Origin: an uncultured virus (IMG/VR IMGVR_UViG_3300018080_006410)
Lineage: Duplodnaviria > Heunggongvirae > Uroviricota > Caudoviricetes
IMG/VR virus record: IMGVR_UViG_3300018080_006410
DNA length: 64,000 nt
Strand: one strand, 5' to 3'
Positions 7,890-48,523 of the stretch are shown one piece after another (within the stretch, counting starts at the first letter, position 1; each line of letters begins with the position of its first letter). The translations under genes and the position numbers were made by a program. The notes under the pieces are model-generated. The model was not told where the DNA came from. It was given only the letters and a program-made list of their open reading frames with translations, and made no database searches.

Positions 7890-9287
7890 TCACCTGGGCC
7901 CTCTTGTCCCGCTCGACCCTCCAGGCCTCGCGCCTCGCCGACCTCTTCCGCACGACCTCGATGTGGACCGCGACCCTCTCGGCCGGCCTTTCGCCGGCCG
8001 CCCACCTGACGTCCTTCTCTTCGTCCCACTCGCCCGCCTCGTTGCCTTGGCGTTCTTGATCGGAACACCGTTGGCCGTCTTATCCCGCACGACCTCGATA
8101 CGGAACTTGCGCCTCGCCGACCTCCCCCGCGCACCCTCGACATAGACTCTGACCTCGGGACCGGCCTTCTCTCCCACCCTTTCGCCATGCGCCCACCTGA
8201 TGTCCTTCTCGTCGTCCCACTCGCACACGAAGCCGTTGATGGAATTGCCGTCCGTGTCGCCCTTCTCAAGCCAGCCGCCGTCCGCGAACCTGGCGTTCCA
8301 GCGGCCGCCTCGGATCATGTACATGTAGTTGCCGACCCTGTTGTTCAGATAGGCCTTGTCGCTCGTGGCAATCAAGGCCTCCATCGCCGCGACCTTGTCC
8401 TCCCGCTTCTGGTTCAGAGCCTCCCGGTACTTCAGCTTGTGAGCCTCGATCAGCACTCGCGCCCCATGCTCGCGGGCGTCGAGCTCGATGAGGTCTGCCC
8501 TCTCGTTCGCCTTGTCGATCAGCTTGGCGCCCATCACCACGGCCTTCATGACGTTCCTGGTGACGTTATTGGACTTCTTGGCCCCAGCCAGGTATTTCGC
8601 CGCCTTCCCCTCGGCCTCGACGACAAGCTCGGCGCGCTTCTCCGCCGCCCTCCCAAGCAGCTTCCTCCTCACCGCCCTGGCCCTGAGGATGCGCTTGACG
8701 TCGTTCTTGCCGATCTTCCTGCCGCTGACCCAATACCGGTAGCGCCACATCTCGCTGCTCTTGACCCATGCCCACCTGCCCGTGCTCTTGGTGTTGGAGG
8801 CGCCGATCCAGGCACGGTTGGTCATCTGAGACAAGGTGCCGCTGATGGCCCTGTTCTCCTCCCTGCTGTCAATCGTGGCGAGGTGGCCGCCCATCTCCTC
8901 GCACTTCGCCTTGGCCTCGTGCCAGGTCACGCCCTCGACCTCAAAGAACTGATAAAAGTGGCCTTGGCGGCGTTTCATCCCCAGGCGCTGCGCGCCCTTG
9001 ATGCCGTCGAGAGCGAGAGGCTGCACCCTCACCATGCCGGCGTCGATGAGAATCTGGGCCCTCTCTTCATGGGGCTTCTTCAGCCATTCCTTCCTCACCT
9101 CCCGTGCCTTGTCGTTCTCCACGAAGATCAGCCTCCCGTCGCGCTTGAAATGATCCCTCCTGACCGGCAGGAAGCCATGGCGATCGACTCCCGGACGTTT
9201 CGCGTCGTGCTTCCTGGGCCTCATCTGCGCCGTCGCCGCGACCCCGAGAACCATCATCATCAGTGCCACCAACCATCTCGTCCTCAT
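7890..9287 (-). CDS. Exported C-type lectin domain protein with helical insertion
   Basis: Signal peptide MRTRWLVALMMMVLGVAATA; TWHEAKAKCEEMGGHLATIDSREEN, AWIG, W-W, GFVCEW. Confidence 0.8.
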   Translation of the reverse strand: MRTRWLVALMMMVLGVAATAQMRPRKHDAKRPGVDRHGFLPVRRDHFKRDGRLIFVENDKAREVRKEWLKKPHEERAQILIDAGMVRVQPLALDGIKGAQRLGMKRRQGHFYQFFEVEGVTWHEAKAKCEEMGGHLATIDSREENRAISGTLSQMTNRAWIGASNTKSTGRWAWVKSSEMWRYRYWVSGRKIGKNDVKRILRARAVRRKLLGRAAEKRAELVVEAEGKAAKYLAGAKKSNNVTRNVMKAVVMGAKLIDKANERADLIELDAREHGARVLIEAHKLKYREALNQKREDKVAAMEALIATSDKAYLNNRVGNYMYMIRGGRWNARFADGGWLEKGDTDGNSINGFVCEWDDEKDIRWAHGERVGEKAGPEVRVYVEGARGRSARRKFRIEVVRDKTANGVPIKNAKATRRASGTKRRTSGGRPAKGRPRGSRSTSRSCGRGRRGARPGGSSGTRGPR

Positions 9288-10218: not shown

Positions 10219-10415
10219 GCCGACACCTCCTTCGCCAAGCCTCGGGCGTAGGCCCTGGACGCGGCGAGCTCCCGCTCCAGCCGCGCGCACCGGGACGACA
10301 GCCACCCGATGGCATACTGGTCCACGTTGACCGCGCGACCGCGGCGGGCCCCGGACTCCCGGGCCGCCGCCACGGCCTCGCCACCGATCTCGCAAGCTTT
10401 CTCGGTCAGACTCAT
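10215..10415 (-). CDS. Hypothetical protein
   Basis: Short ORF directly behind class A promoter motif. Confidence 0.5.
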   Translation of the reverse strand: MSLTEKACEIGGEAVAAARESGARRGRAVNVDQYAIGWLSSRCARLERELAASRAYARGLAKEVSA

Positions 10416-10846
10416 CTCGATCCTCCTGTCCGGTTTCGTCTCCACCCCCATATTGCCAAAGAAGCAGAGTTTTCCACCAGGAGGTCGCGCCTTCTCAGGA
10501 AACGCATGAGCGCGGGCACCGTCGACCGCCTTCTCCAACCGTCCGGCCCGCCGTTGTGGATGCGGTACGCGACCTCCATGCCCAAGGCGTTCCCGGTCTC
10601 TCTCTCGTACCTGGCGCCGTAGTGCCGGACGTAGGTCACCACGCACCACCGGGACAGCGTCGCGGACGCCCGGACGTCGGCCATGGAGTGGCTCGTCCCC
10701 GCGATCCGGTTGACGTCGTCCAGGTACGGCTGCCTGATCTGGCACAGGCCGTACGCCCGGTTCCGGAGATGCGTGTCGCCGACCGCGTTCGGGTCGCCGT
10801 CACTCTCGGCCAGGATCAATGCGGCAAGGAATAGCACCCAGTTCAT
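10412..10846 (-). CDS. Lysozyme-like protein (i-type/destabilase-like), candidate endolysin
   Basis: ILAESDGDPNAVGD, YGLCQIRQPYLDD, RIHNGGP motifs; hydrophobic N-terminus. Confidence 0.7.
   Translation of the reverse strand: MNWVLFLAALILAESDGDPNAVGDTHLRNRAYGLCQIRQPYLDDVNRIAGTSHSMADVRASATLSRWCVVTYVRHYGARYERETGNALGMEVAYRIHNGGPDGWRRRSTVPALMRFLRRRDLLVENSASLAIWGWRRNRTGGSR
10441..10477 (-). promoter_or_regulatory. Class A repeated promoter-like motif (copy 1 of 9)
   Basis: GTGGAAAA-N~11-T(T/C)GGCAATATGGGGGTGGA upstream of a gene start. Confidence 0.7.
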
Positions 10847-11990: not shown

Positions 11991-12403
11991 GCCACCGCCT
12001 CCTTCCACATCTCGTCGAACACCCCAGTTTTCCTATCGTAGAGCAGCTTGCACAGGTTCTCGAACTCGTCGAAATGAAAGTAGTACCACCCGTCCTCGCC
12101 ATACGGAGTCTCCTCGGCCCGACCCCCGTAGTGCCTGGCGATACGCCGGGAGCGTGACTCTCCGAACTCCTCGAAGTCCGTCCACCAGTAGTCCGTGGGC
12201 TCGTGACGCAGGATCAGGGAGAGCCTGGCGCCCGGGGACATCCCGCTCGGAGGTGTCACGTAGCCCGTGGATTCCAGACAACAGTACATACCCTCGAACT
12301 TGAAAACCGCCCGAGAGTGGCCCCGGCGCTCGTTGACCCAGAACTCCTCCTCCTTCTCGACAGCGCCCATCCGCTCGGTGAATTGCTCCAGCGTCTCTTT
12401 CAT
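11987..12403 (-). CDS. Hypothetical protein
   Basis: ORF with AGGAG RBS, downstream of class A and class B promoter motifs. Confidence 0.7.
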   Translation of the reverse strand: MKETLEQFTERMGAVEKEEEFWVNERRGHSRAVFKFEGMYCCLESTGYVTPPSGMSPGARLSLILRHEPTDYWWTDFEEFGESRSRRIARHYGGRAEETPYGEDGWYYFHFDEFENLCKLLYDRKTGVFDEMWKEAVA

Positions 12404-21798: not shown

Positions 21799-22140
21799 TC
21801 ACCCCGACCCCCTCGCCGGGTTCGGCACAGGAGCCCCTCCGTCGCTCACGTCCCAGGACCTCACCTCGTTCGCCTCGCCCTCCAGCAGCAGGAACTCCTT
21901 GTCGCCCCCCGGTCGCCCGACGACGGCCCTCCCGTTCCTCCGCAGCAAGTCGCAGACCCTTCGGTAGGTGAGCGGCGACTCGGTCGCCACGACGTCGTCG
22001 TAGGCCACCATGGAGGACTCCAGGTCCGGCACGAGGCCGACCATGGAGTCCCACGCGTTCTTCTTCTGGGTGAAGGTCCCGCGCACGAACATGCGCCCGA
22101 CCCCGGGCATCCTCTGAGCCATGACCACAAGCCTAGCCAT
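21799..22140 (-). CDS. Hypothetical protein
   Basis: ORF coupled to ATPase stop. Confidence 0.55.
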   Translation of the reverse strand: MARLVVMAQRMPGVGRMFVRGTFTQKKNAWDSMVGLVPDLESSMVAYDDVVATESPLTYRRVCDLLRRNGRAVVGRPGGDKEFLLLEGEANEVRSWDVSDGGAPVPNPARGSG

Positions 22141-24716
22141 CACACCACCTTCATGATGAGGTCCTTGAGCTCGTCGTTCCCGAGTATCCACTGCACCATG
22201 CGCCCCTCGTCACGGACCCTGTTGATGCGGAGGCAGAGGGCATGCCTCATGTCCTCCTCCAGGCACGGCAGCGTCAGGAAGCGCTGGACGTTGGCAACTG
22301 CCGACGCCGTCTGCTCGCACTCGGGGTTGGCCAGCCTGGCGAAGAGCCGGCTGGAGATGACCCCGACCACGTCGATCCTCTTCTCCCTCCTGGTCATGAG
22401 GTCCTTGACGTGCTTGAAGGCCGACTCGTCCCCGAGCAGTATCCGCTCCGGCTCGACGGCCATCTCCACGTCCCTCTGGAAGAAGGTCAGGATGGAATGG
22501 ACCGTGACGTCGTCCAGGAGCGCCTGGGCCATCCTCCTGAGACGCGCGACCGACTCCTTGCCCTTCAGGCTCGGCACCCTCTTTGAGTACCGGAAGAAGT
22601 CCGACAGCGTCCGCGGCATCGTCCTCTCGCCCCCGACCATCATCTCGGGGTAGGACAGGACGTAGTTGATCCCCCGTGGGTCGAGCCCCTGGGCGTCGGC
22701 CCAGACCGCCCACTCCTTGGCGTCGTGCCTCAGGGTCGCGCTGCGGAACCTGGTCAGGATCGCCTTGTCGATGGTCGTCACGAGGTACTCCTGCTCGTCC
22801 GGGTTGGCCGACATCACTATGTTGCAGCCAGGCGGCAGCCTCCAGCTCATCATCCCGTAGGTCTGCATCAGCTGCATGATCCCCTTGACGATGCGGCCGC
22901 TCGCCCGGTTCCAGTCCTCCAGGTGGAGGATCGACGGCCCCGGCCGGTGAGGCACCCAGTCCGGAGGCGCGTACATTGTCCTGACGCCCGCCGTGTGATC
23001 GACGTCCCACCCGTCGTTGACGTAGCCCTTGGCCACTTCCATCGGCACCCACAGCTCATCGTTCCTGCCGTGATTCCTGCGAATCAGGACGTGCTTGTCG
23101 GGGAGCCCGTGCAGGTCGCCCATCTCCTCGAACTGCGCGATGGGGACATGCCTGACGTCGTAGCCCTCGTAGTCGTCGCCCTCCCACTTGACCGGCACCT
23201 TCCGGAACTGGTCGATCTTACCAGAATTGTGAACCACGATCCCATTAGCCACGAACTCATGACCATTCGGCACGCACAGATCGAAGAGGGGAATGCGACC
23301 AGCATCCCAGGTCTCCTCCACTGTCTCGTACCTATAAGCCATCACATAGTCCAGAAGCGTCCTGTACGACTCGTCGGCGGCATCCAGGACGGCAGCAATC
23401 CTCTCAACCTTCTCCCTGCTCCACACCTTTCGCCTCTTCTTGAGGCCCTCGCCATAGATGCTGTTCAGCGGACAGGAGTGGACGGCCTTCTTCCCGACAT
23501 GGCCACCATTCGCCAGGTGCGAATCCTTCATGGCCCGAAGGAACCCCCACGCCCAACAGGAGGGGACACCATCCTTGTTCGGATTGGATGAACGATCAAG
23601 CCATTCACCCGCGGCCCTGGAGAAGCCGACAACCTCATTGAAGGCCCTCGCGTCCTCTCCGGTAACGTTCAGCCTCCACGCCTTCTTCGTCTTCCTTCTG
23701 AGAGAGGCCATCACGCCGAAACGCAGAAGCATGAACTGCACCTGCTCCAGCATCCTCTTCGAGTTCGACCCTATCGAGATTCCATGCAACTCGTTGGAGC
23801 CCCCGGCCTCCACGAGCGCCTTCAGAAACCCCAACTGGCTACGTTTCGAGGACCGCATGACGGAATAGGGAACGCGCACATCGTCGCTTCCCGCATAGTC
23901 AAGACCTATCTCGGCCAGCCACCTCCTGATCGCCGTCCTGTTCACAGAGTAGTCGAAATTGCCATCCCCCTTGTGGGAAGATCGAACAGGCCGGAGCCCA
24001 AACACTTTTTCAAATCTCAGACAGTAGGCGTCCCCGAGCGGACGAGACTCATGCTGCGAGAACTTGACCACATAACGAGAGCCCTGTGCCCCCTCCCCAA
24101 CGAGAGCCCCGAGCACGAAGGCCAAGTCGGGCGTCATCCTCGATGGCACCACAAAATCACGGATGCAATATCTCCCGAGGTCGCCAAGGGAAGGAAGCCC
24201 CATGTCGGGCGCATCGACCCTGACAAAATCGACAACGACAAAATCGCCGATCTCCAGTTCGGGCAGGTTCTTCCATTTGAACCCCGATTCCGTCAGCACC
24301 TTCACCGGATGCTCCAGGCTGCCAACGATCTCCCTCCCATTGCTCGTCCTGATCCCGATGGCATCCTTCAAACCGGCATGATACACAAAAGCTACCTGCT
24401 GCATCGGGTCGCTTCGGTTCGGAGTGTGAACCCTAAGGTCGACAACCCCCCTTGTGGAGTCGTCCCCCAGGCCGTCACAGCACTCGGCTATCTCCACCAT
24501 CCCGTCGTCAGTCACGACGAGAGACTCCCCAGCAATGCACTTTCCGACACCGGAATGACCCCACACGCAGGTGGAGAACCGGTCCCGATCGTTCTTGATC
24601 TCGTAGTTCAGGCTGAACGACTCGGCCAGGAAGTCGTCGAGCTCGGAGTAGCTCAGCTTCGGCCCGTAGCAGCCCTCGTACGAGAGGTCCTGCTCTTGAT
24701 CTTTGTCTTTCCCCAT
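22140..24716 (-). CDS. AAA+ ATPase (MoxR/dynein-related) containing an intein
   Basis: Walker A GHSGVGK|S split by intein; Walker B ILHLEDWNRA; SANP; DKAILTRF. Confidence 0.85.
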   Translation of the reverse strand: MGKDKDQEQDLSYEGCYGPKLSYSELDDFLAESFSLNYEIKNDRDRFSTCVWGHSGVGKCIAGESLVVTDDGMVEIAECCDGLGDDSTRGVVDLRVHTPNRSDPMQQVAFVYHAGLKDAIGIRTSNGREIVGSLEHPVKVLTESGFKWKNLPELEIGDFVVVDFVRVDAPDMGLPSLGDLGRYCIRDFVVPSRMTPDLAFVLGALVGEGAQGSRYVVKFSQHESRPLGDAYCLRFEKVFGLRPVRSSHKGDGNFDYSVNRTAIRRWLAEIGLDYAGSDDVRVPYSVMRSSKRSQLGFLKALVEAGGSNELHGISIGSNSKRMLEQVQFMLLRFGVMASLRRKTKKAWRLNVTGEDARAFNEVVGFSRAAGEWLDRSSNPNKDGVPSCWAWGFLRAMKDSHLANGGHVGKKAVHSCPLNSIYGEGLKKRRKVWSREKVERIAAVLDAADESYRTLLDYVMAYRYETVEETWDAGRIPLFDLCVPNGHEFVANGIVVHNSGKIDQFRKVPVKWEGDDYEGYDVRHVPIAQFEEMGDLHGLPDKHVLIRRNHGRNDELWVPMEVAKGYVNDGWDVDHTAGVRTMYAPPDWVPHRPGPSILHLEDWNRASGRIVKGIMQLMQTYGMMSWRLPPGCNIVMSANPDEQEYLVTTIDKAILTRFRSATLRHDAKEWAVWADAQGLDPRGINYVLSYPEMMVGGERTMPRTLSDFFRYSKRVPSLKGKESVARLRRMAQALLDDVTVHSILTFFQRDVEMAVEPERILLGDESAFKHVKDLMTRREKRIDVVGVISSRLFARLANPECEQTASAVANVQRFLTLPCLEEDMRHALCLRINRVRDEGRMVQWILGNDELKDLIMKVV
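23226..24539 (-). mobile_element. Intein with LAGLIDADG homing endonuclease (438 aa)
   Basis: Begins CIAGESLV, ends FDLCVPNGHEFVANGIVVHN/S; LGALVGEG and FLKALVEAGG motifs; visibly lower GC. Confidence 0.92.
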
Positions 24717-39058: not shown

Positions 39059-39136
39059 TGGCCTCGAACGACAGGGCTCGAACCTGCGTCCTCCCGGAAA
39101 AAGAGCCGGGACGCTCTACCACTGAGCTACGTCGAG
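39059..39136 (-). ncRNA. tRNA-like RNA with 6-bp anticodon stem and 8-nt loop (copy 1)
   Basis: TCCCGG-CTCTTTTT-CCGGGA arm, canonical D/T arms, bulged acceptor stem, G73-CCA. Confidence 0.75.
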
Positions 39137-39143
39137 ACAAGAT

Positions 39144-39220
39144 TGGCAGGTGAGGCAGGGCTCGAACCTGCGTCCTCCCGGAAAAAGAGCCGGGACGCTC
39201 TACCACTGAGCTACACACCT
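39144..39220 (-). ncRNA. tRNA-like RNA with 6-bp anticodon stem and 8-nt loop (copy 2)
   Basis: 59-nt core identical to copy 1, different acceptor stem, G73-CCA. Confidence 0.75.
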
Positions 39221-41203: not shown

Positions 41204-41277
41204 TGGAGGTCCCGGCAGGGCTCGAACCTGCGGCCACGCGGTCCGAGCCGCCCGCTCTACCTCTAAGCTACGGAACC
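41204..41277 (-). pseudogene. tRNA-like element with 6-nt anticodon loop (CTCGGA)
   Basis: Good acceptor, D and T arms; loop one nt short. Confidence 0.6.
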
Positions 41278-41438: not shown

Positions 41439-41515
41439 TGGCAGGCCCGCTCGGGGTCGAACCGAGAACCGCCGGTTTTGGAGACCGGTGCTCTAGCCGA
41501 TTGAGCTACGGACCT
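41439..41515 (-). tRNA. tRNA-Trp(CCA)
   Basis: Cloverleaf, loop CT-CCA-AA. Confidence 0.93.
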
Positions 41516-41526
41516 ATCATGAAACC

Positions 41527-41602
41527 TGGTGCGACAGACGGGGCTCGAACCCGTGGCCTCCTGCTTGGCAAGCAGGTGCTCTTCCGACTGAGCTACTGCC
41601 GC
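41527..41602 (-). tRNA. tRNA-Gly(GCC)
   Basis: Cloverleaf, loop TT-GCC-AA. Confidence 0.93.
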
Positions 41603-41637
41603 AAAGAAAAACCCCCGCGCCCTTTCGGGCCGGGGGT
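41603..41637 (-). terminator. Attenuator terminator 1
   Basis: ACCCCCGGCCC-GAAA-GGGCGCGGGGGT-TTTTCTTT directly 5' of tRNA-Gly. Confidence 0.85.
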
Positions 41638-41659
41638 CTCACAGCGCGCTCGCCACCGT

Positions 41660-41743
41660 CTACGCTTGAACTCCAAGCGAAAGACCCCCGTGGGCGGGCT
41701 TGCCGCCCCAGGTATTGTCTTTCGTTGTGGTTCCCGTCAGCAT
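41660..41743 (-). CDS. Leader peptide 1 (MLTGTTTKDNTWGGKPAHGGLSLGVQA)
   Basis: 27-aa ORF between promoter and terminator; Thr/Lys/Asn/Trp/Gly codons; contains antiterminator strand. Confidence 0.75.
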   Translation of the reverse strand: MLTGTTTKDNTWGGKPAHGGLSLGVQA

Positions 41744-41767
41744 GACGTAGTTGCCTTTCGTTGCCTT

Positions 41768-41796
41768 ATTATACGCCGCTCGCCCGAATTTGCCAA
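41768..41796 (-). promoter_or_regulatory. Sigma70-like promoter of tRNA unit 1
   Basis: TTGGCA-N17-TATAAT. Confidence 0.8.
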
Positions 41797-41951: not shown

Positions 41952-42839
41952 CTAACACCCTCTGATAAAGTCCCAAAGCCCCTCCCGGTCAACATCGGCC
42001 AAGACCCTGGTGTTCGTCCCCTCCTCGACCTTCGTCCCCCACCAGCCTCCCTCCCGGTACAACCTTCCGCCAACCCAGGTCCCGATCTCGGGATGCAGAT
42101 GGCACACGGCAGCGGTCGGGTCGTGGAACTTCTTCTCCCGGTGCCTCTTCCCGTAGAGATAGAGGTCCATGCCTTCCATGAACAGCTCCATCGCCCGGCA
42201 GGAAGGCTTCCTGCGCCTCATCCACTCGTGCCTCGCCCTGTCGTACAGGATCGTGTGACAGACGTTCTTGCCGACGAACCTCAGGTCCCCGACCTTCGCC
42301 CGCGACGCCAGGAACAAGCCCTCGTCCTTCGACCCGTTCAAGTTGAAGGTAGGCACGGCCACCTTGCCCTTGAACTTGGGAAGCCTCTCGACGTCATGGC
42401 CATGAAGGTCGTATCCCAGAAAGCCACCCTGCATCGTGACCCGCCCGAACTCCCTCTCCGGATGCTCGATCATGTAGCGGCCCACGTTCTTCACCGGCCC
42501 GCAGATGAAGACGTCGCTGTCCGGATGGTCCTCGAGAACCCCGCCCAGAAGCTCGTGGCCGAAGCCGTCGGGGTCCGCCTCGGTCGGATGTCCCATCTTC
42601 CTCAGGAGCGCCATGTGGAACGACGTCCCTCCGGTCTTGACGACGCTCGTCTCCTTCGCGATCCCGACAGGGACATCCAGGCCGACCTCCGCGCAGAAGG
42701 CCCTCGCGATGGCGACCTGGTACCGGTGTCCGGGAGAGACGAGGATCGCCCTGATCCTGACACCCGCGGCGTGCAGGTGGCACAGCGTGAAGTAGTCGTC
42801 GGGATCGTGCCCGATGTCGGTTTCCACTATCAGGTCCAT
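41952..42839 (-). CDS. Nucleoside hydrolase family protein
   Basis: N-terminal ETDIGHDPDD (DxDxxxDD-like), CGPVKN, MQGG, TFNL, FHDP. Confidence 0.75.
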   Translation of the reverse strand: MDLIVETDIGHDPDDYFTLCHLHAAGVRIRAILVSPGHRYQVAIARAFCAEVGLDVPVGIAKETSVVKTGGTSFHMALLRKMGHPTEADPDGFGHELLGGVLEDHPDSDVFICGPVKNVGRYMIEHPEREFGRVTMQGGFLGYDLHGHDVERLPKFKGKVAVPTFNLNGSKDEGLFLASRAKVGDLRFVGKNVCHTILYDRARHEWMRRRKPSCRAMELFMEGMDLYLYGKRHREKKFHDPTAAVCHLHPEIGTWVGGRLYREGGWWGTKVEEGTNTRVLADVDREGLWDFIRGC

Positions 42840-43019
42840 CAATCGTCTTCCTCCATCTTCCTGCCTGCGAAAAGGTCCGTAGGTGTAAGCGCCCAGAGCT
42901 ACGGAGGCCGAGTGTTGTTGACGCAGTTTCCTCACTTCCTATCCCTTTCGGGTCTCGTTACTGCGAGAGTTTTTTGTTTTTGCGGTCCAGTTTCTCCACG
43001 TCTGGACACATCCCGAGAC

Positions 43020-44659: not shown

Positions 44660-44699
44660 AAAGAAAAACCCCCGACGCCCTTTTCGGGGTGCCGGGGGT
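44660..44699 (-). terminator. Attenuator terminator 2
   Basis: ACCCCCGGCACCCC-GAAAA-GGGCGTCGGGGGT-TTTTCTTT upstream of tRNA-Ala. Confidence 0.85.
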
Positions 44700-44716
44700 C
44701 CTTGGACCTATCAGGG

Positions 44717-44797
44717 TCAGAACACAGCACCCCCGGCACCCGCGTTCGCGGGCTGCTCGATCGCTTCGTGTCTGGCCATCGGGTTCATTGAGTACAT
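44717..44797 (-). CDS. Leader peptide 2 (MYSMNPMARHEAIEQPANAGAGGAVF)
   Basis: 26-aa ORF with AAGGAG RBS between promoter and terminator; contains 13-nt antiterminator strand. Confidence 0.8.
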   Translation of the reverse strand: MYSMNPMARHEAIEQPANAGAGGAVF

Positions 44798-44812
44798 TGC
44801 TCCTTGCCTATT

Positions 44813-44842
44813 ATCATACGCCGTCAACGCCAGTCTTACCAG
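44813..44842 (-). promoter_or_regulatory. Sigma70-like promoter of tRNA unit 2
   Basis: CTGGTA-N18-TATGAT with GGCG extension. Confidence 0.65.
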
Positions 44843-44874: not shown

Positions 44875-45498
44875 TCAGCCCTCCAGCTCGACGTCCCAGT
44901 ACATGGCGCCGAGGAAGTCCTCCCACGACCTGGGAGGGTCCCTCAGGATGCCACGCCTGTTGACGACGGCCCAGTGCGGCTCCCTCGGCTCCCTCAGGAG
45001 CGTCAGGCCCGCCTCCCTGGGCGTCCGGCTGTCCTTCTTGTGGTTGCACCTCACGCACGAGAGAACCAGGTTCTCCCAGGTCGTGCCTCCACCCCTGGAC
45101 TTGGGGACCACGTGGTCGATGTTGAGCTTGGAGGCCGGCAGCTTCTTGCCGCAGTACTGACAGACGTTCCGGTCGCGGGCGAAGATCGCCTTCCGGCAGA
45201 GCTTGGCCCGACGACGCCAGAAGCGGACCTTCCGGACGAGCCGGATGACCTCCGGCGCCGGGAAGGCGAAGCTCCTGGAACGCACGAGGGGGCGCCCCGA
45301 CTCGGCCATCTCCGCGGCCCTGGCCGCGTCGGACCAGCTCTCGACCCACTCCTCGAAGCCGTAGAGGGAGTAGTCATTGTCGACGACGTCGGCCTTCCCC
45401 GCGCACACCTTGCACAGGGCCCCGACCACGTTCGTCACGTCCACCGGCCTCCACGAGCCGTCAAGCACCAGGACCCGCCTGTCAAGCACTCCCGTCAT
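44875..45498 (-). CDS. HNH endonuclease
   Basis: IFARDRNVCQYCG, IDHVVPKSRGG, WENLVLSCVRCNHKK. Confidence 0.92.
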   Translation of the reverse strand: MTGVLDRRVLVLDGSWRPVDVTNVVGALCKVCAGKADVVDNDYSLYGFEEWVESWSDAARAAEMAESGRPLVRSRSFAFPAPEVIRLVRKVRFWRRRAKLCRKAIFARDRNVCQYCGKKLPASKLNIDHVVPKSRGGGTTWENLVLSCVRCNHKKDSRTPREAGLTLLREPREPHWAVVNRRGILRDPPRSWEDFLGAMYWDVELEG

Positions 45499-45601: not shown

Positions 45602-45678
45602 TGGTCCGTCTGGTAGGGATCGAACCTACAACCTGTCGCGTATGAGACGACCGCTCTAACCAACTGAGCTACAGACGG
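45602..45678 (-). tRNA. tRNA-Met/Ile2(CAT)
   Basis: Cloverleaf, loop CT-CAT-AC. Confidence 0.9.
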
Positions 45679-45685
45679 ATAATTC

Positions 45686-45761
45686 TGGAGGACCCGGCGG
45701 GACTCGAACCCGCGACCTTCGGCTTCGGAGACCGATGTTCTTCCAACTGAACTACAGGTCC
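45686..45761 (-). tRNA. tRNA-Arg(CCG)
   Basis: Cloverleaf, loop CT-CCG-AA. Confidence 0.92.
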
Positions 45762-45768
45762 TCAAAGT

Positions 45769-45846
45769 TGGCACGCCCGGCAGGATTCAAACCTGCGACT
45801 TCCCCGTCCGTAGCGGGGCGCTCTATTCAGACTGAGCTACGGGCGC
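45769..45846 (-). tRNA. tRNA-Arg(ACG)
   Basis: Cloverleaf, loop CT-ACG-GA. Confidence 0.9.
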
Positions 45847-45852
45847 TCATTA

Positions 45853-46518
45853 TCAAAACTTCCCAGGCTCCCACCAGGAGGCCGACTTCCGGCTTTCGTA
45901 AGACCTGTCCAGCTGGTGGCCCCTGCAAAAGTCCCTGGTTCCTCTCCAGAGGTGATGCACGTAGTCCTGGACCGGGAAGTCCACCAGCATCGACTCCATC
46001 CTCTTGACCCTCAGCTCGTACATCGGCGCCACCAGCGCAAGCCCGTGGTCCGTGAACGGCTCGAACCGCCGATAGTACCCGACATGGAAGAGGCACGTCG
46101 ACGAATGAAGGTACGAAACCTTCTCGCCTCCCACCGGCCTTTTCACCGGCGCGACCGGCCCTATCCCGTACCACCTGGTCTTCCGGCCCCCGACCTTCGC
46201 CAGGGCGTCCTCCAGCAAGTTCGGCTCGTACATCTCCGTATCGCTGTCCAGCATCAGCAGCACGTCGGCCTCCGTCGCCCACAGCGCCACGTTCATCCCC
46301 GGCCCATGGCCGATGTTGGACCCCACCCGGATAAGCCTCACCCGGTTCCTCTTCGCCCATTTCCTGACGTTCCTCGGAGCGACCCCCTCGGTGTTGTCCA
46401 CCACGAAGAAGTCGATGTCCGGATAGAACCTCCTCACCGACGCCACCGCCTTCCTCATCAGGCCGTAGGTGTGATAGACGACCATCGCCGCGGCCACCCG
46501 ACAGCCCTCGATCTTCAT
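45853..46518 (-). CDS. Glycosyltransferase family 2 protein
   Basis: FVVDN, NIGHGPGMN, LLMLDSD. Confidence 0.8.
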   Translation of the reverse strand: MKIEGCRVAAAMVVYHTYGLMRKAVASVRRFYPDIDFFVVDNTEGVAPRNVRKWAKRNRVRLIRVGSNIGHGPGMNVALWATEADVLLMLDSDTEMYEPNLLEDALAKVGGRKTRWYGIGPVAPVKRPVGGEKVSYLHSSTCLFHVGYYRRFEPFTDHGLALVAPMYELRVKRMESMLVDFPVQDYVHHLWRGTRDFCRGHQLDRSYESRKSASWWEPGKF

Positions 46519-46550
46519 CAGCAACCTCCTTTGGGTTGCCCTTAACATAC

Positions 46551-46641
46551 TGGCGGAGAGCCGGGGACTCCAACCCCGAAGCCCGGTTTCCCGGACCGAC
46601 GCCGTTTCCAACGGCGCTCCTCATGCAGCCGGATGCTCTCC
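46551..46641 (-). tRNA. tRNA-Ser(GGA)
   Basis: Loop TT-GGA-AA, long variable arm; atypical T loop TTGGAGT. Confidence 0.85.
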
Positions 46642-46649
46642 TCAAAGTC

Positions 46650-46819
46650 TGAAGCCGACGGGACTCGAACCCGCATCCCGGTGCGTCCTGCCCATTCCGC
46701 AGCCCGCGTGGCTGGCCATGTCACAGCCCTTTGGACTCGCAGGCGTCACCCGTCGCGCTTGCGCCTCGACGGGCTATGCGGCGCTCCGCTCCGGCCCTTG
46801 CCATTAGGTGGACGGCCTC
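46650..46819 (-). ncRNA. 170-nt tRNA-like RNA with Ala-type acceptor and ~100-nt insert replacing the anticodon loop
   Basis: GAGGCCG/CGGCTTC (G3:U70), A73, D arm CCT-AATGGCA-AGG, T arm GCGGG-TTCGAGT-CCCGT. Confidence 0.7.
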
Positions 46820-46827
46820 ATCGAAAA

Positions 46828-46903
46828 TGGAGACGGGGGAGGGACTCGAACCCTCATGAACGCGGGTTGCAACCGCGCGCCTAAACCTCTCAGCCACCCC
46901 GCC
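46828..46903 (-). tRNA. tRNA-Cys(GCA)
   Basis: Loop TT-GCA-AC, U73. Confidence 0.92.
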
Positions 46904-46941
46904 AAAAATCTCCTTTGCTACACTGCTACACTGCTACACCT

Positions 46942-47025
46942 TGGTGCCCGAGACAGGGATCGAACCTGCACGCCTTTCGACAGCCGAACTTAAACCGGCC
47001 GCGTCTGCCATTCCGCCACTCGGGC
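46942..47025 (-). tRNA. tRNA-Leu(TAA)
   Basis: Loop TT-TAA-GT, variable arm. Confidence 0.92.
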
Positions 47026-47030
47026 CAAAT

Positions 47031-47107
47031 TGGTGGTGAGAGTCGGAATCGAACCAACGACGCCTCGGGCTTCAACCGAGTGCTCTACCGGACTGAGCTA
47101 CCTCACC
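47031..47107 (-). tRNA. tRNA-Phe(GAA)
   Basis: Loop TT-GAA-GC. Confidence 0.93.
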
Positions 47108-47185
47108 GAAAGTCCCTTCCAGTTCTGGCCGGGCGTTTGGACCCGTCGGGCTGCCAAGCCCGAGCACCGGTCGGGACACAATCTT

Positions 47186-47276
47186 TGGCGGAGAGCCGGG
47201 GAATCGAACCCCGAAACCCCGTTTCCAGGGCCTACCGGTTTAGCAAACCGACTCCTCGTCCATCCGGACGCTCTCC
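47186..47276 (-). tRNA. tRNA-Ser(GCT)
   Basis: Loop TT-GCT-AA, long variable arm. Confidence 0.9.
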
Positions 47277-47281
47277 ACTAT

Positions 47282-47458
47282 TCAAATCTCCTCGTACTTC
47301 CCCCAGAAACCCATCGGGCACGACTCTTCTGCCAACGACGCCTTTCGTCTGACGTTGCACCTCTCCACCAAGCACACCATCGCCTTGGCGTCCATCTTAC
47401 GACACGGCTTGCACCAACGGTCAAGTCGCTCGCGTATCACCGAGTTTGGCGCCCTCAC
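47282..47458 (-). CDS. Small Cys-rich protein (58 aa) inside tRNA unit 3
   Basis: AGGAGG RBS, GTG start, WCKPC...VC..RC...SCPMGFW; below ORF-track size cut-off. Confidence 0.65.
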   Translation of the reverse strand: MRAPNSVIRERLDRWCKPCRKMDAKAMVCLVERCNVRRKASLAEESCPMGFWGKYEEI

Positions 47459-47474
47459 TCCTTCCTCCTATCAA

Positions 47475-47551
47475 TGGTGCAGTGGACGCGAATCGAACGC
47501 GCGACCTTCCGCTTGGAAGGCGGAAGCTCTACCTGGCTGAGCTACCACTGC
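47475..47551 (-). tRNA. tRNA-Gly(TCC)
   Basis: Loop CT-TCC-AA. Confidence 0.92.
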
Positions 47552-47560
47552 GTCTAAATC

Positions 47561-47646
47561 TGGTGCCCGAGGAGGGAGTCGAACCCTCACCGCCTTTCGG
47601 CACTGCGGTCTGAGCGCAGCGTGTCTGCCAATTCCACCACCCGGGC
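47561..47646 (-). tRNA. tRNA-Leu(CAG)
   Basis: Loop CT-CAG-AC, variable arm. Confidence 0.92.
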
Positions 47647-47744
47647 TTGTTGCCGGGTTCTCTCCACCCGGCGAAGTCACGCCTTTGCATACCCCACAAG
47701 ACGTTAATGGGTTGCACCGAGGTTTGAAGCCCCGGTCCACATCT

Positions 47745-47835
47745 TGGCGGAGAGCCGGAGACTCGAACTCCGAAGCCCCGTTCCCGGGACCTACGCGCTT
47801 TCGAAACGCGCTCCTCATCCGGCCGGATGCTCTCC
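47745..47835 (-). tRNA. tRNA-Ser(CGA)
   Basis: Loop TT-CGA-AA, long variable arm. Confidence 0.9.
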
Positions 47836-47843
47836 ATGATTCC

Positions 47844-47930
47844 TGGTGACCCCGGGGAGACTCGAACTCCCACGCCCTCTCGGGCCCCCGGCCCTCAACC
47901 GGGGCCGTATGCCAATTCCGGCACGGGACC
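47844..47930 (-). tRNA. tRNA-Leu(GAG)
   Basis: Loop TT-GAG-GG, variable arm. Confidence 0.92.
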
Positions 47931-47943
47931 ACTGTTCAGTTGT

Positions 47944-48029
47944 TGGTGCGCCGAGATGGAGTCGAACCATCAAAGCCCGAAGGCGCCGATTTTACAGACC
48001 GGGGAGCTCGCCAAATGCTCAGCCGACGC
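47944..48029 (-). tRNA. tRNA-Tyr(GTA)
   Basis: Loop CT-GTA-AA, variable arm. Confidence 0.9.
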
Positions 48030-48091
48030 ATCTCGTCGTCGATCATCTCCTTCTCTCGATCCCGGACTCGCTATCTCGTTCCATTTGTTGC

Positions 48092-48176
48092 TGGTAGCCC
48101 AGGGGAGAGTCGAACTCCCATCCCCGAAGGGACCCGATTTTGAATCGGGCGCGTATGCCAATTCCGCCACTGGGCC
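48092..48176 (-). tRNA. tRNA-Leu(CAA)
   Basis: Loop TT-CAA-AA, variable arm. Confidence 0.92.
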
Positions 48177-48185
48177 TTTCAATCC

Positions 48186-48276
48186 TGGAGGAGGGCCGGG
48201 GACTCCAACCCCGAGACCCCGTTTCCAGGGCCTACCCGATTTCAAATCGAGCTCCTCGTGCAGCCGGTCGCCCTCC
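48186..48276 (-). tRNA. tRNA-Ser(TGA)
   Basis: Loop TT-TGA-AA, long variable arm; atypical T loop TTGGAGT. Confidence 0.85.
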
Positions 48277-48278
48277 AG

Positions 48279-48315
48279 AAACAGAAAAACCCCCGGAGGC
48301 TTTCGCGTCCGGGGG
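48279..48315 (-). terminator. Attenuator terminator 3
   Basis: CCCCCGGACGC-GAAA-GCCTCCGGGGG-TTTTTCTGTTT directly 5' of tRNA-Ser(TGA). Confidence 0.85.
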
Positions 48316-48335
48316 CCTAGGGGCTTCGACGAGCG

Positions 48336-48425
48336 TCAACGCAGCCCGGACGCAGGCGTAAGGCGGAACGAGGAATATCCCCGCCCACAACATGCCAACA
48401 TCAGGTTGCGACTCTGCTTGTCCAT
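48336..48425 (-). CDS. Leader peptide 3 (MDKQSRNLMLACCGRGYSSFRLTPASGLR)
   Basis: 29-aa ORF between promoter and terminator; Ser/Arg/Leu/Cys/Gly/Tyr/Phe codons; contains antiterminator strand. Confidence 0.8.
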   Translation of the reverse strand: MDKQSRNLMLACCGRGYSSFRLTPASGLR

Positions 48426-48493
48426 CGTCTCTCTCGGTTTGTGGGGTCCAGCCCTGGAATTGGCCAGGACCCTCACCCGTCGTCCAAAATCCC

Positions 48494-48523
48494 ATTATAC
48501 ACCCTCGGGCGCCGACTTGCCAA
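48494..48523 (-). promoter_or_regulatory. Sigma70-like promoter of tRNA unit 3
   Basis: TTGGCA-N18-TATAAT with TG just upstream of the -10. Confidence 0.8.

Follow-up and report, generated by a model that had tools for sequence, protein, structure and literature searches.

The window analyzed here, that is, the whole stretch of 64,000 nucleotides, comes from an uncultured virus of the Caudoviricetes (IMG/VR record IMGVR_UViG_3300018080_006410). Its G+C content is 65.6%, the GC skew is below zero over the whole window, and the genes for which a family match was obtained are encoded by the minus strand. The encoded proteins include collagen-like, glycosyltransferase, NAD-ligase, CobS/CobT-like, and intein-bearing products, a gene set that points to a large phage. 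One ORF of 858 amino acids (22140-24716, minus strand) carries an intein splicing domain together with a LAGLIDADG domain. Approximately 40 tRNA genes were located by ARAGORN and Rfam within 38.9 to 48.3 kb, each of them on the minus strand, and the array also contains a nucleoside-hydrolase-like gene, an HNH endonuclease gene, and a family-2 glycosyltransferase gene. Several tRNA genes of the array have unusual features. The tandem genes at 39059-39137 and 39144-39220 (minus strand; Rfam tRNA scores of 39.9 and 52.9 bits, respectively) were read by ARAGORN with an enlarged anticodon loop and a four-base anticodon (Lys-like CTT plus T), and they could be quadruplet or frameshift decoders. The gene at 41204-41277 (minus strand; Rfam score of 49.8 bits) has an anticodon loop of apparently six nucleotides and was given a two-base anticodon by ARAGORN. 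Additionally, the 177-nt spacer between tRNA-Cys and tRNA-Ser(GGA) (46652-46828, minus strand) has a tRNA-like T-arm and acceptor 3' strand at its 3' end, with a matching 5' strand about 170 nt upstream, and this spacer might represent a tRNA that is disrupted or carries an insert.

The minus-strand element at 48523-48277 consists, in this order, of a promoter, a 5' hairpin, a 29-codon ORF, a GC-rich tetraloop hairpin, and a U-rich tract, and it is followed by tRNA-Ser(TGA) (Table 1). We refer to this element and the tRNA genes behind it as unit 3, and to two related units in the same array as units 1 and 2. The unit 3 promoter, which overlaps the stop codon of an upstream gene of 72 amino acids, matched 11 of the 12 consensus positions. 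When 14 kb was scanned, 5 promoter-like sites were found versus 1.3 expected, and the sole other site with 11 of 12 matches heads unit 1. Transcription would start near 48487, and with this predicted start the leader transcript would be about 210 nt long, which fits the range of known attenuators (150 to 250 nt). The 5' hairpin seen in the modeled fold may contribute to RNA stability. Upstream of the start codon of the ORF there is a purine-rich stretch that is only a weak match to a Shine-Dalgarno sequence. A longer ORF of 46 codons, beginning at an upstream GTG, was rejected, since just 3 of its 16 extra codons are read by the tRNAs of the unit and these codons lie inside the 5' hairpin. The U-tract of the terminator ends at 48277 and the first tRNA begins at 48276. 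Because the terminator abuts the first tRNA, there is no space for a second promoter ahead of the unit 3 tRNAs, and transcripts from the promoter must cross a strong intrinsic terminator to reach them. A simple consensus scan for terminators flagged that of unit 2 only and missed those of units 1 and 3.

Table 1. Positions of the features of the three units and of protein genes in the tRNA array
Feature	Position	Strand	Details
Unit 3, sigma-70-type promoter	48523-48494	minus	-35 at 48523-48518, -10 at 48499-48494, 18-nt spacer
Unit 3, stable hairpin in 5' untranslated leader	48441-48476	minus	minimum-energy fold
Unit 3, leader ORF	48425-48336	minus	29 codons plus stop; list in codons 5-22 (48413-48360)
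Unit 3, hairpin inside ORF	48363-48388 (about)	minus	minimum-energy fold
Unit 3, antiterminator 5' arm	48345-48353	minus	inside codons 25-27, two codons ahead of the stop
Unit 3, intrinsic terminator	48277-48318	minus	tetraloop GC-rich stem 48318-48287; U-rich tract 48289-48277
Unit 3, 15 regulated tRNA genes (predicted unit)	45602-48276	minus	ARAGORN, Rfam, inspection
Unit 2	44661-44840	minus	degenerate promoter copy; leader ORF 44797-44717
Unit 2, antiterminator arm (12 nt)	44741-44730	minus	terminator 44698-44669 plus U-tract
Unit 1	41603-41796	minus	promoter 41796-41768; leader ORF 41743-41660
Unit 1, antiterminator arm (9 nt)	41690-41682	minus	terminator 41640-41608 plus U-tract
Nucleoside-hydrolase-like gene	41952-42935	minus	below Pfam cut-off
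HNH endonuclease gene	44875-45498	minus	
Family-2 glycosyltransferase gene	45853-46518	minus	

The tRNAs of unit 3 follow in the order Ser TGA, Leu CAA, Tyr, Leu GAG, Ser CGA, Leu CAG, Gly TCC, Ser GCT, Phe, Leu TAA, Cys, and Ser GGA, and then, beyond the glycosyltransferase gene, Arg ACG, Arg CCG, and CAT. With default settings ARAGORN called 13 of these 15 and missed Ser(TGA) at 48190-48276 and Ser(GGA) at approximately 46552-46651. Both were recovered by inspection and by ARAGORN with relaxed thresholds, and Ser(TGA) also with a weak Rfam score (Rfam gave no match for Ser(GGA)), so that the list of 15 stands. These two tRNAs have a G in the T-loop where the conserved C56 is normal. The next promoter-like site (45595-45567) comes after the last tRNA of the unit, and the boundary drawn here is supported by the leader itself, since the Arg and Met tRNAs beyond the glycosyltransferase gene have codons in it.

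The initial annotation had described the ORF as a leader peptide that lists the codons of the downstream tRNAs. We confirmed the reading of codons 5 to 22 on the minus strand: 16 of these 18 codons are read by tRNAs of the unit, the exceptions being an Asn and an Ala codon, and Ser and Leu are each spelled with three different codons. For each of the 15 anticodons there is a cognate codon in the leader, although Ser(TGA) and Leu(TAA) are matched via U:G wobble only. Such complete coverage was reached by none of 20,000 random 28-codon peptides drawn from the codon usage of the genome, which covered 6.9 anticodons on average. Over the whole leader, the tRNAs of the unit read 20 of the 28 sense codons that follow the start codon and leave 8 unread, against an expected fraction of 0.33 calculated from 7,096 codons of 14 genes with standard wobble rules (binomial P = 3e-5). 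The choice of codons also differs from that of the genes, as had been proposed, with G or C at the third position in 19 of 28 codons versus a fraction of 0.85 in the 14 genes (P = 0.019), and many of the listed codons are rare synonyms or are read by wobble. Most of them occur singly, without the runs found in trp or his leaders, and the sensitivity of the leader to one scarce tRNA is uncertain for this reason.

The listing was specific for the frame and for the unit. The other five frames of the same stretch covered 6 to 11 of the 15 anticodons, and the unit 3 leader covered just 5 of 7 and 6 of 15 anticodons of the other two units in the window. In all six leaders tested, maximum coverage was obtained with their own frame and their own unit, and every off-diagonal cell in the table of leaders by units was at or below expectation. 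What a listing of this kind directly shows is codon-anticodon complementarity only, which would also suit direct sensing of tRNA by the leader RNA in the manner of a T-box, the listed codons then serving as specifier triplets without being translated. The list occupies, however, a single frame bounded by a start and a stop codon, and no conserved acceptor-binding bulge was seen, so that we regard direct sensing as extremely unlikely. A T-box riboswitch proper was rejected, as Rfam gave no T-box match at E values up to 1 on either strand of the region from 38 to 50 kb, and no other Rfam family matched the leaders.

The two related units have the same layout. Unit 1 (41.7 kb, before tRNA-Gly) and unit 2 (44.8 kb, before tRNA-Ala) align with unit 3 in the promoter, the G-rich core of the antiterminator, and the terminator, whereas their leader ORFs differ in sequence and name different amino acids. 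When the whole window was scanned for this architecture, exactly these three heads were found and nothing else. The tRNAs of unit 1 are Gly, Trp, Lys, an odd tRNA, Lys, Ser, Thr, and Asn, and 16 of the 26 residues of its leader belong to the six amino acids of the block (expected fraction, 0.30; P = 8e-4). The unit 2 leader is followed by 15 tRNAs (Ala, His, Asp, Val, Gln, Arg TCT, Val, Ile, Glu, Pro, CAT, Glu, Met, Pro, and Pro); counted as 16 genes with 15 distinct anticodons, including Gln TTG beyond the nucleoside-hydrolase-like gene, the unit has 13 of its 15 anticodons covered by the leader (P = 0.023). By residues, 17 of 25 belong to the ten amino acids of this unit against an expected fraction of 0.56, which is not significant alone (P = 0.16). 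The leader of unit 2 also holds the rare codon AGA, matching the Arg(TCT) tRNA of its block.

In all three units, a complement to the 5' terminator arm sits within the 3' part of the leader ORF. For unit 3, the earlier proposal of a 9-nt antiterminator two codons before the stop was borne out, its arm being the exact complement of 48313-48305, and a complement of this length or longer was obtained in 0.4% of 2,000 dinucleotide shuffles (P = 0.004). The complement is also 9 nt long in unit 1 (P = 0.009) and reaches 12 nt in unit 2 (P < 0.0005). A hairpin inside the unit 3 ORF ahead of the antiterminator, which the initial annotation had pointed out as a possible pause site, was present in the minimum-energy fold. 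With the shuffles, the random-peptide simulation, and the controls for frame and unit, a chance origin of the codon list and of the helix was rejected. The calculated energies of the terminator and of the antiterminator fold were -26.8 and -32.2 kcal/mol for unit 1, -22.8 and -38.0 kcal/mol for unit 2, and -23.4 and -23.9 kcal/mol for unit 3.

Without a ribosome, the equilibrium probability of the terminator was at least 0.95 in all three units (0.95 for the stem of unit 3), and in unit 3 it remained at 0.92 to 0.95 at every ribosome position. Because the terminator of unit 3 forms at equilibrium wherever the ribosome stands, the switch in this unit would have to be kinetic. The same result can be taken in favor of a constitutive, leaky terminator or insulator, which would give a fixed low level of read-through or serve as a mark for processing or stability, the short ORF having no regulatory role; the terminators annotated, without comment, before the tRNA blocks of phage phiCbK agree with it as well. 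However, a leaky terminator leaves unexplained that all 15 anticodons are covered, that this coverage is specific for its own frame and its own unit, and that a nonrandom antiterminator lies inside the ORF, and we consider it unlikely.

Ribosome-mediated attenuation was modeled with transcripts cut just before the 3' terminator arm and a 30-nt mask for the ribosome. In these folds, the pairing probability of the unit 3 5' terminator arm was 0.80 with the ribosome at codons 3 to 19, and it was lower later, at 0.37 to 0.55 from codon 20 to the stop (with 0.71 at codon 24 and 0.46 at the stop itself), in agreement with the earlier suggestion that a ribosome near the stop would mask the antiterminator. 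In unit 2 the corresponding value dropped from 1.00 to 0.42 as the ribosome approached the stop, and in unit 1 there was no clear dependence with the ribosome at the stop codon itself. Overall, the place of the ribosome affected modeled pairing in units 2 and 3 as well as in unit B of the megaphage G001 described below, with little or no dependence in unit 1 and in units A and C of G001. In unit 3, we found no clear anti-antiterminator, that is, no helix of the 1:2 type that overlaps the antiterminator arm. On these models, a kinetic switch of the classical type is plausible.

The distance from the stop codon to the terminator stem was 18 to 20 nt in all three units (18 nt in unit 3), and this constancy suggests a geometry tuned to the ribosome. 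It would also agree with the opposite logic, in which efficient translation of the leader promotes read-through because the ribosome pushes the polymerase or blocks Rho, and the array is made only as long as translation proceeds. However, a ribosome standing at the stop codon of unit 3 misses the terminator stem yet covers the antiterminator arm, and the listing of rare and wobble-read codons fits a sensor of stalling better, which makes the opposite logic improbable.

The units of the window were compared with those of other phages. Close relatives were not recovered from the GenBank phage collection, where the DNA search returned tRNA matches only and the protein search no match, and a scan of viral contigs with the CobT-like protein of the window gave no match. 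With the nucleoside-hydrolase-like protein as an anchor, we found 13 metagenome loci, none of which had tRNAs, and one relative, 43% identical, in a distant megaphage represented by a complete viral contig of 572 kb (G001). A search with the T-arm pattern yielded two unrelated contigs only, and one with the terminator motif of G001 yielded only chance or terminator matches. Contigs from four sequencing runs matched the window mostly through tRNA cross-matches from other organisms, with a few short pieces over the leaders. These pieces covered 48287-48431, 48139-48326, and 41500-41736, and the variants among public contigs were either nearly identical to the window or about 90 to 97% identical.

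In G001, a short ORF and a terminator that abuts the first tRNA stand ahead of each of three tRNA arrays. The residues of the leaders that belong to the amino acid set of their own array numbered 19 of 22 for leader A (P = 2e-7), 23 of 28 for leader B (P = 5.5e-4), and 7 of 20 for leader C (P = 0.011), and cross-unit matches amounted to at most 4 residues (1 to 4 of 20 to 28). The list in leader B is complete, with each of the 11 amino acids of the array present. In leader C, Ser is frequent and Tyr occurs, yet no Ser or Tyr tRNA was found in the array behind it, which weakens the rule of a perfect listing. The same contig carries three tRNAs of 74 to 77 nt (positions 1917-2189 of locus L035, minus strand) with the Leu anticodons TAG, CAA, and TAA and without a long variable arm; such an arm is expected in bacterial tRNA-Leu.

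Similar leaders were identified in cultured phages. A single leader in Erythrobacter phage vB_EliS-L02 had 17 of 27 residues in its own set (P = 2e-4). For the following three phages, the boundaries of the tRNA sets were drawn after inspection of the sequences: the matches were 19 of 21 (P = 7e-9) and 15 of 18 (P = 7.5e-5) for leaders 1 and 2 of Sphingobium phage Lacusarx; 33 of 38 (P = 2.5e-7) and 21 of 46 (P = 0.023) for units 1 and 2 of Caulobacter phage C1; and 3 of 19 (P = 0.26), 31 of 44 (P = 1e-6), and 10 of 31 (P = 0.047) for units a, b, and c of phiCbK. The leader of C1 unit 1 names all 8 amino acids of its array. In phiCbK, unit b is an annotated 45-codon gene that precedes Pro, Lys, Leu, Ala, and Ser tRNAs; this "hypothetical protein" (10264-10401 of locus L060) is the codon-matched leader of the second tRNA block, and only 1 of its 44 residues matched the other phiCbK unit. 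The GenBank record of phiCbK lists rho-independent terminators directly before three tRNA blocks (8844-8890, 10469-10493, and 12189-12226 of locus L060). Nothing convincing was found by the architecture scan, whose terminator criterion also missed phage C1, in Aeromonas phage avDM6, Xanthomonas phage BUDD, Streptomyces phage Wakanda, and one viral contig of 208 kb, so that the element cannot be called universal.

As peptides, the phiCbK and C1 leaders resemble each other. This resemblance, together with the annotation of one of them as a protein gene, would fit an independent small gene, for a micropeptide or a small RNA, that has its own promoter and terminator, with the tRNAs transcribed by read-through from upstream. 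Against this, the three leaders of the window share structural elements but not peptide sequence, the composition of the leaders follows the tRNA sets, and neither a Pfam nor an Rfam family was detected in the stretch, so that an independent gene appears very unlikely.

Leader-peptide transcription attenuators are known from the enterobacterial trp, his, leu, and phe operons and, in multivalent form, from thr and ilv. The unit described here resembles them in having a promoter, a short leader with regulatory codons, antiterminator and terminator helices that are mutually exclusive, and a stop codon placed so that a ribosome finishing the leader would mask the antiterminator. It differs from them in that tRNA genes rather than biosynthetic enzymes lie behind the terminator, in that up to 15 isoacceptors of 8 amino acids are listed, mostly once, where the operon leaders repeat one or a few codons in runs, in being phage-borne and present in three copies, one per tRNA block, and in lacking, in unit 3, a clear 1:2-type helix overlapping the antiterminator arm. 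A closer functional parallel in one respect is the pheST leader (pheM), a leader-peptide attenuator of a tRNA synthetase operon, where a gene of the translation apparatus is likewise controlled by a leader peptide that reads the supply of charged tRNA; that system is monovalent (Phe) and chromosomal and controls a protein gene. T-box riboswitches bind uncharged tRNA without translation and have a conserved T-box sequence. They too sense the state of tRNA by codon-anticodon pairing, with either a terminator or an antiterminator as the outcome, and they differ from the present element, for which an Rfam T-box match is absent. Control of tRNA genes is, in the textbook view, exerted at the promoter (growth-rate and stringent control). 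The attenuator logic is known; here it would act on tRNA genes, with a listing of many isoacceptors. In full-text searches that combined attenuation or leader peptides with tRNA genes or arrays, no paper describing such control of tRNA genes appeared among the listings, and neither "attenuat" nor "leader" occurred in passages of the genome papers on Lacusarx (PMC5648845) and phiCbK (PMC3556154).

The proposal that the tRNA unit is controlled by a leader-peptide attenuator agrees with every computational test that was run, on architecture, codon list, antiterminator, paralogues, and other phages. From sequence and modeled folding, we think it likely that the element at 48523-48277 is a functional ribosome-mediated transcription attenuator that gates the tRNA block and that the phage probably makes the 15 tRNAs only when their codons are read slowly. 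With fast decoding of all listed codons, the ribosome would reach the last codons or the stop and cover 48353-48345; the terminator hairpin would then form, and the transcript would end just ahead of tRNA-Ser. When decoding is slow at any listed codon because the matching charged tRNA is scarce, as might happen late in infection, through a mismatch with the codon usage of the host, or after cleavage of host tRNAs, the ribosome would lag, and the free 48353-48345 segment would pair with the 5' terminator arm at 48313-48305. The polymerase would then enter the tRNA array, and the leader would be trimmed by RNase P. The outcome would be a block-wise negative feedback on tRNA supply, with units 1 and 2 acting likewise on the other two blocks. 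The architecture, the match of the codons, and the complementary stretch with its position are visible in the sequence; translation of the leader, its coupling to transcription, the kinetics of the switch, and the physiological trigger are what we infer.

By a narrow preference, we extend this reading to large phages that may gate each of their tRNA blocks by a codon-listing test peptide, a per-isoacceptor sensor of decoding by which only the block with slowly read codons would be switched on; it would form a modular feedback and a ready response to depletion or cleavage of tRNAs by the host, conserved from this GC-rich phage of sediment or seawater to phiCbK of the model host Caulobacter. Since the architecture is present in cultured phages of tractable hosts (Caulobacter and Sphingobium), the idea is directly testable. 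If it is true, leader-peptide attenuation would be a new way of regulating tRNA genes and the first attenuator in which the regulated product is the molecule that is sensed. It would also account for the sorting of phage tRNA genes into amino acid blocks and would give a role to many unannotated or "hypothetical" mini-ORFs, such as the phiCbK gene before its tRNA block. It would also link the tRNA arrays of phages to a current question, namely, in what ways phages withstand the depletion of host tRNAs.
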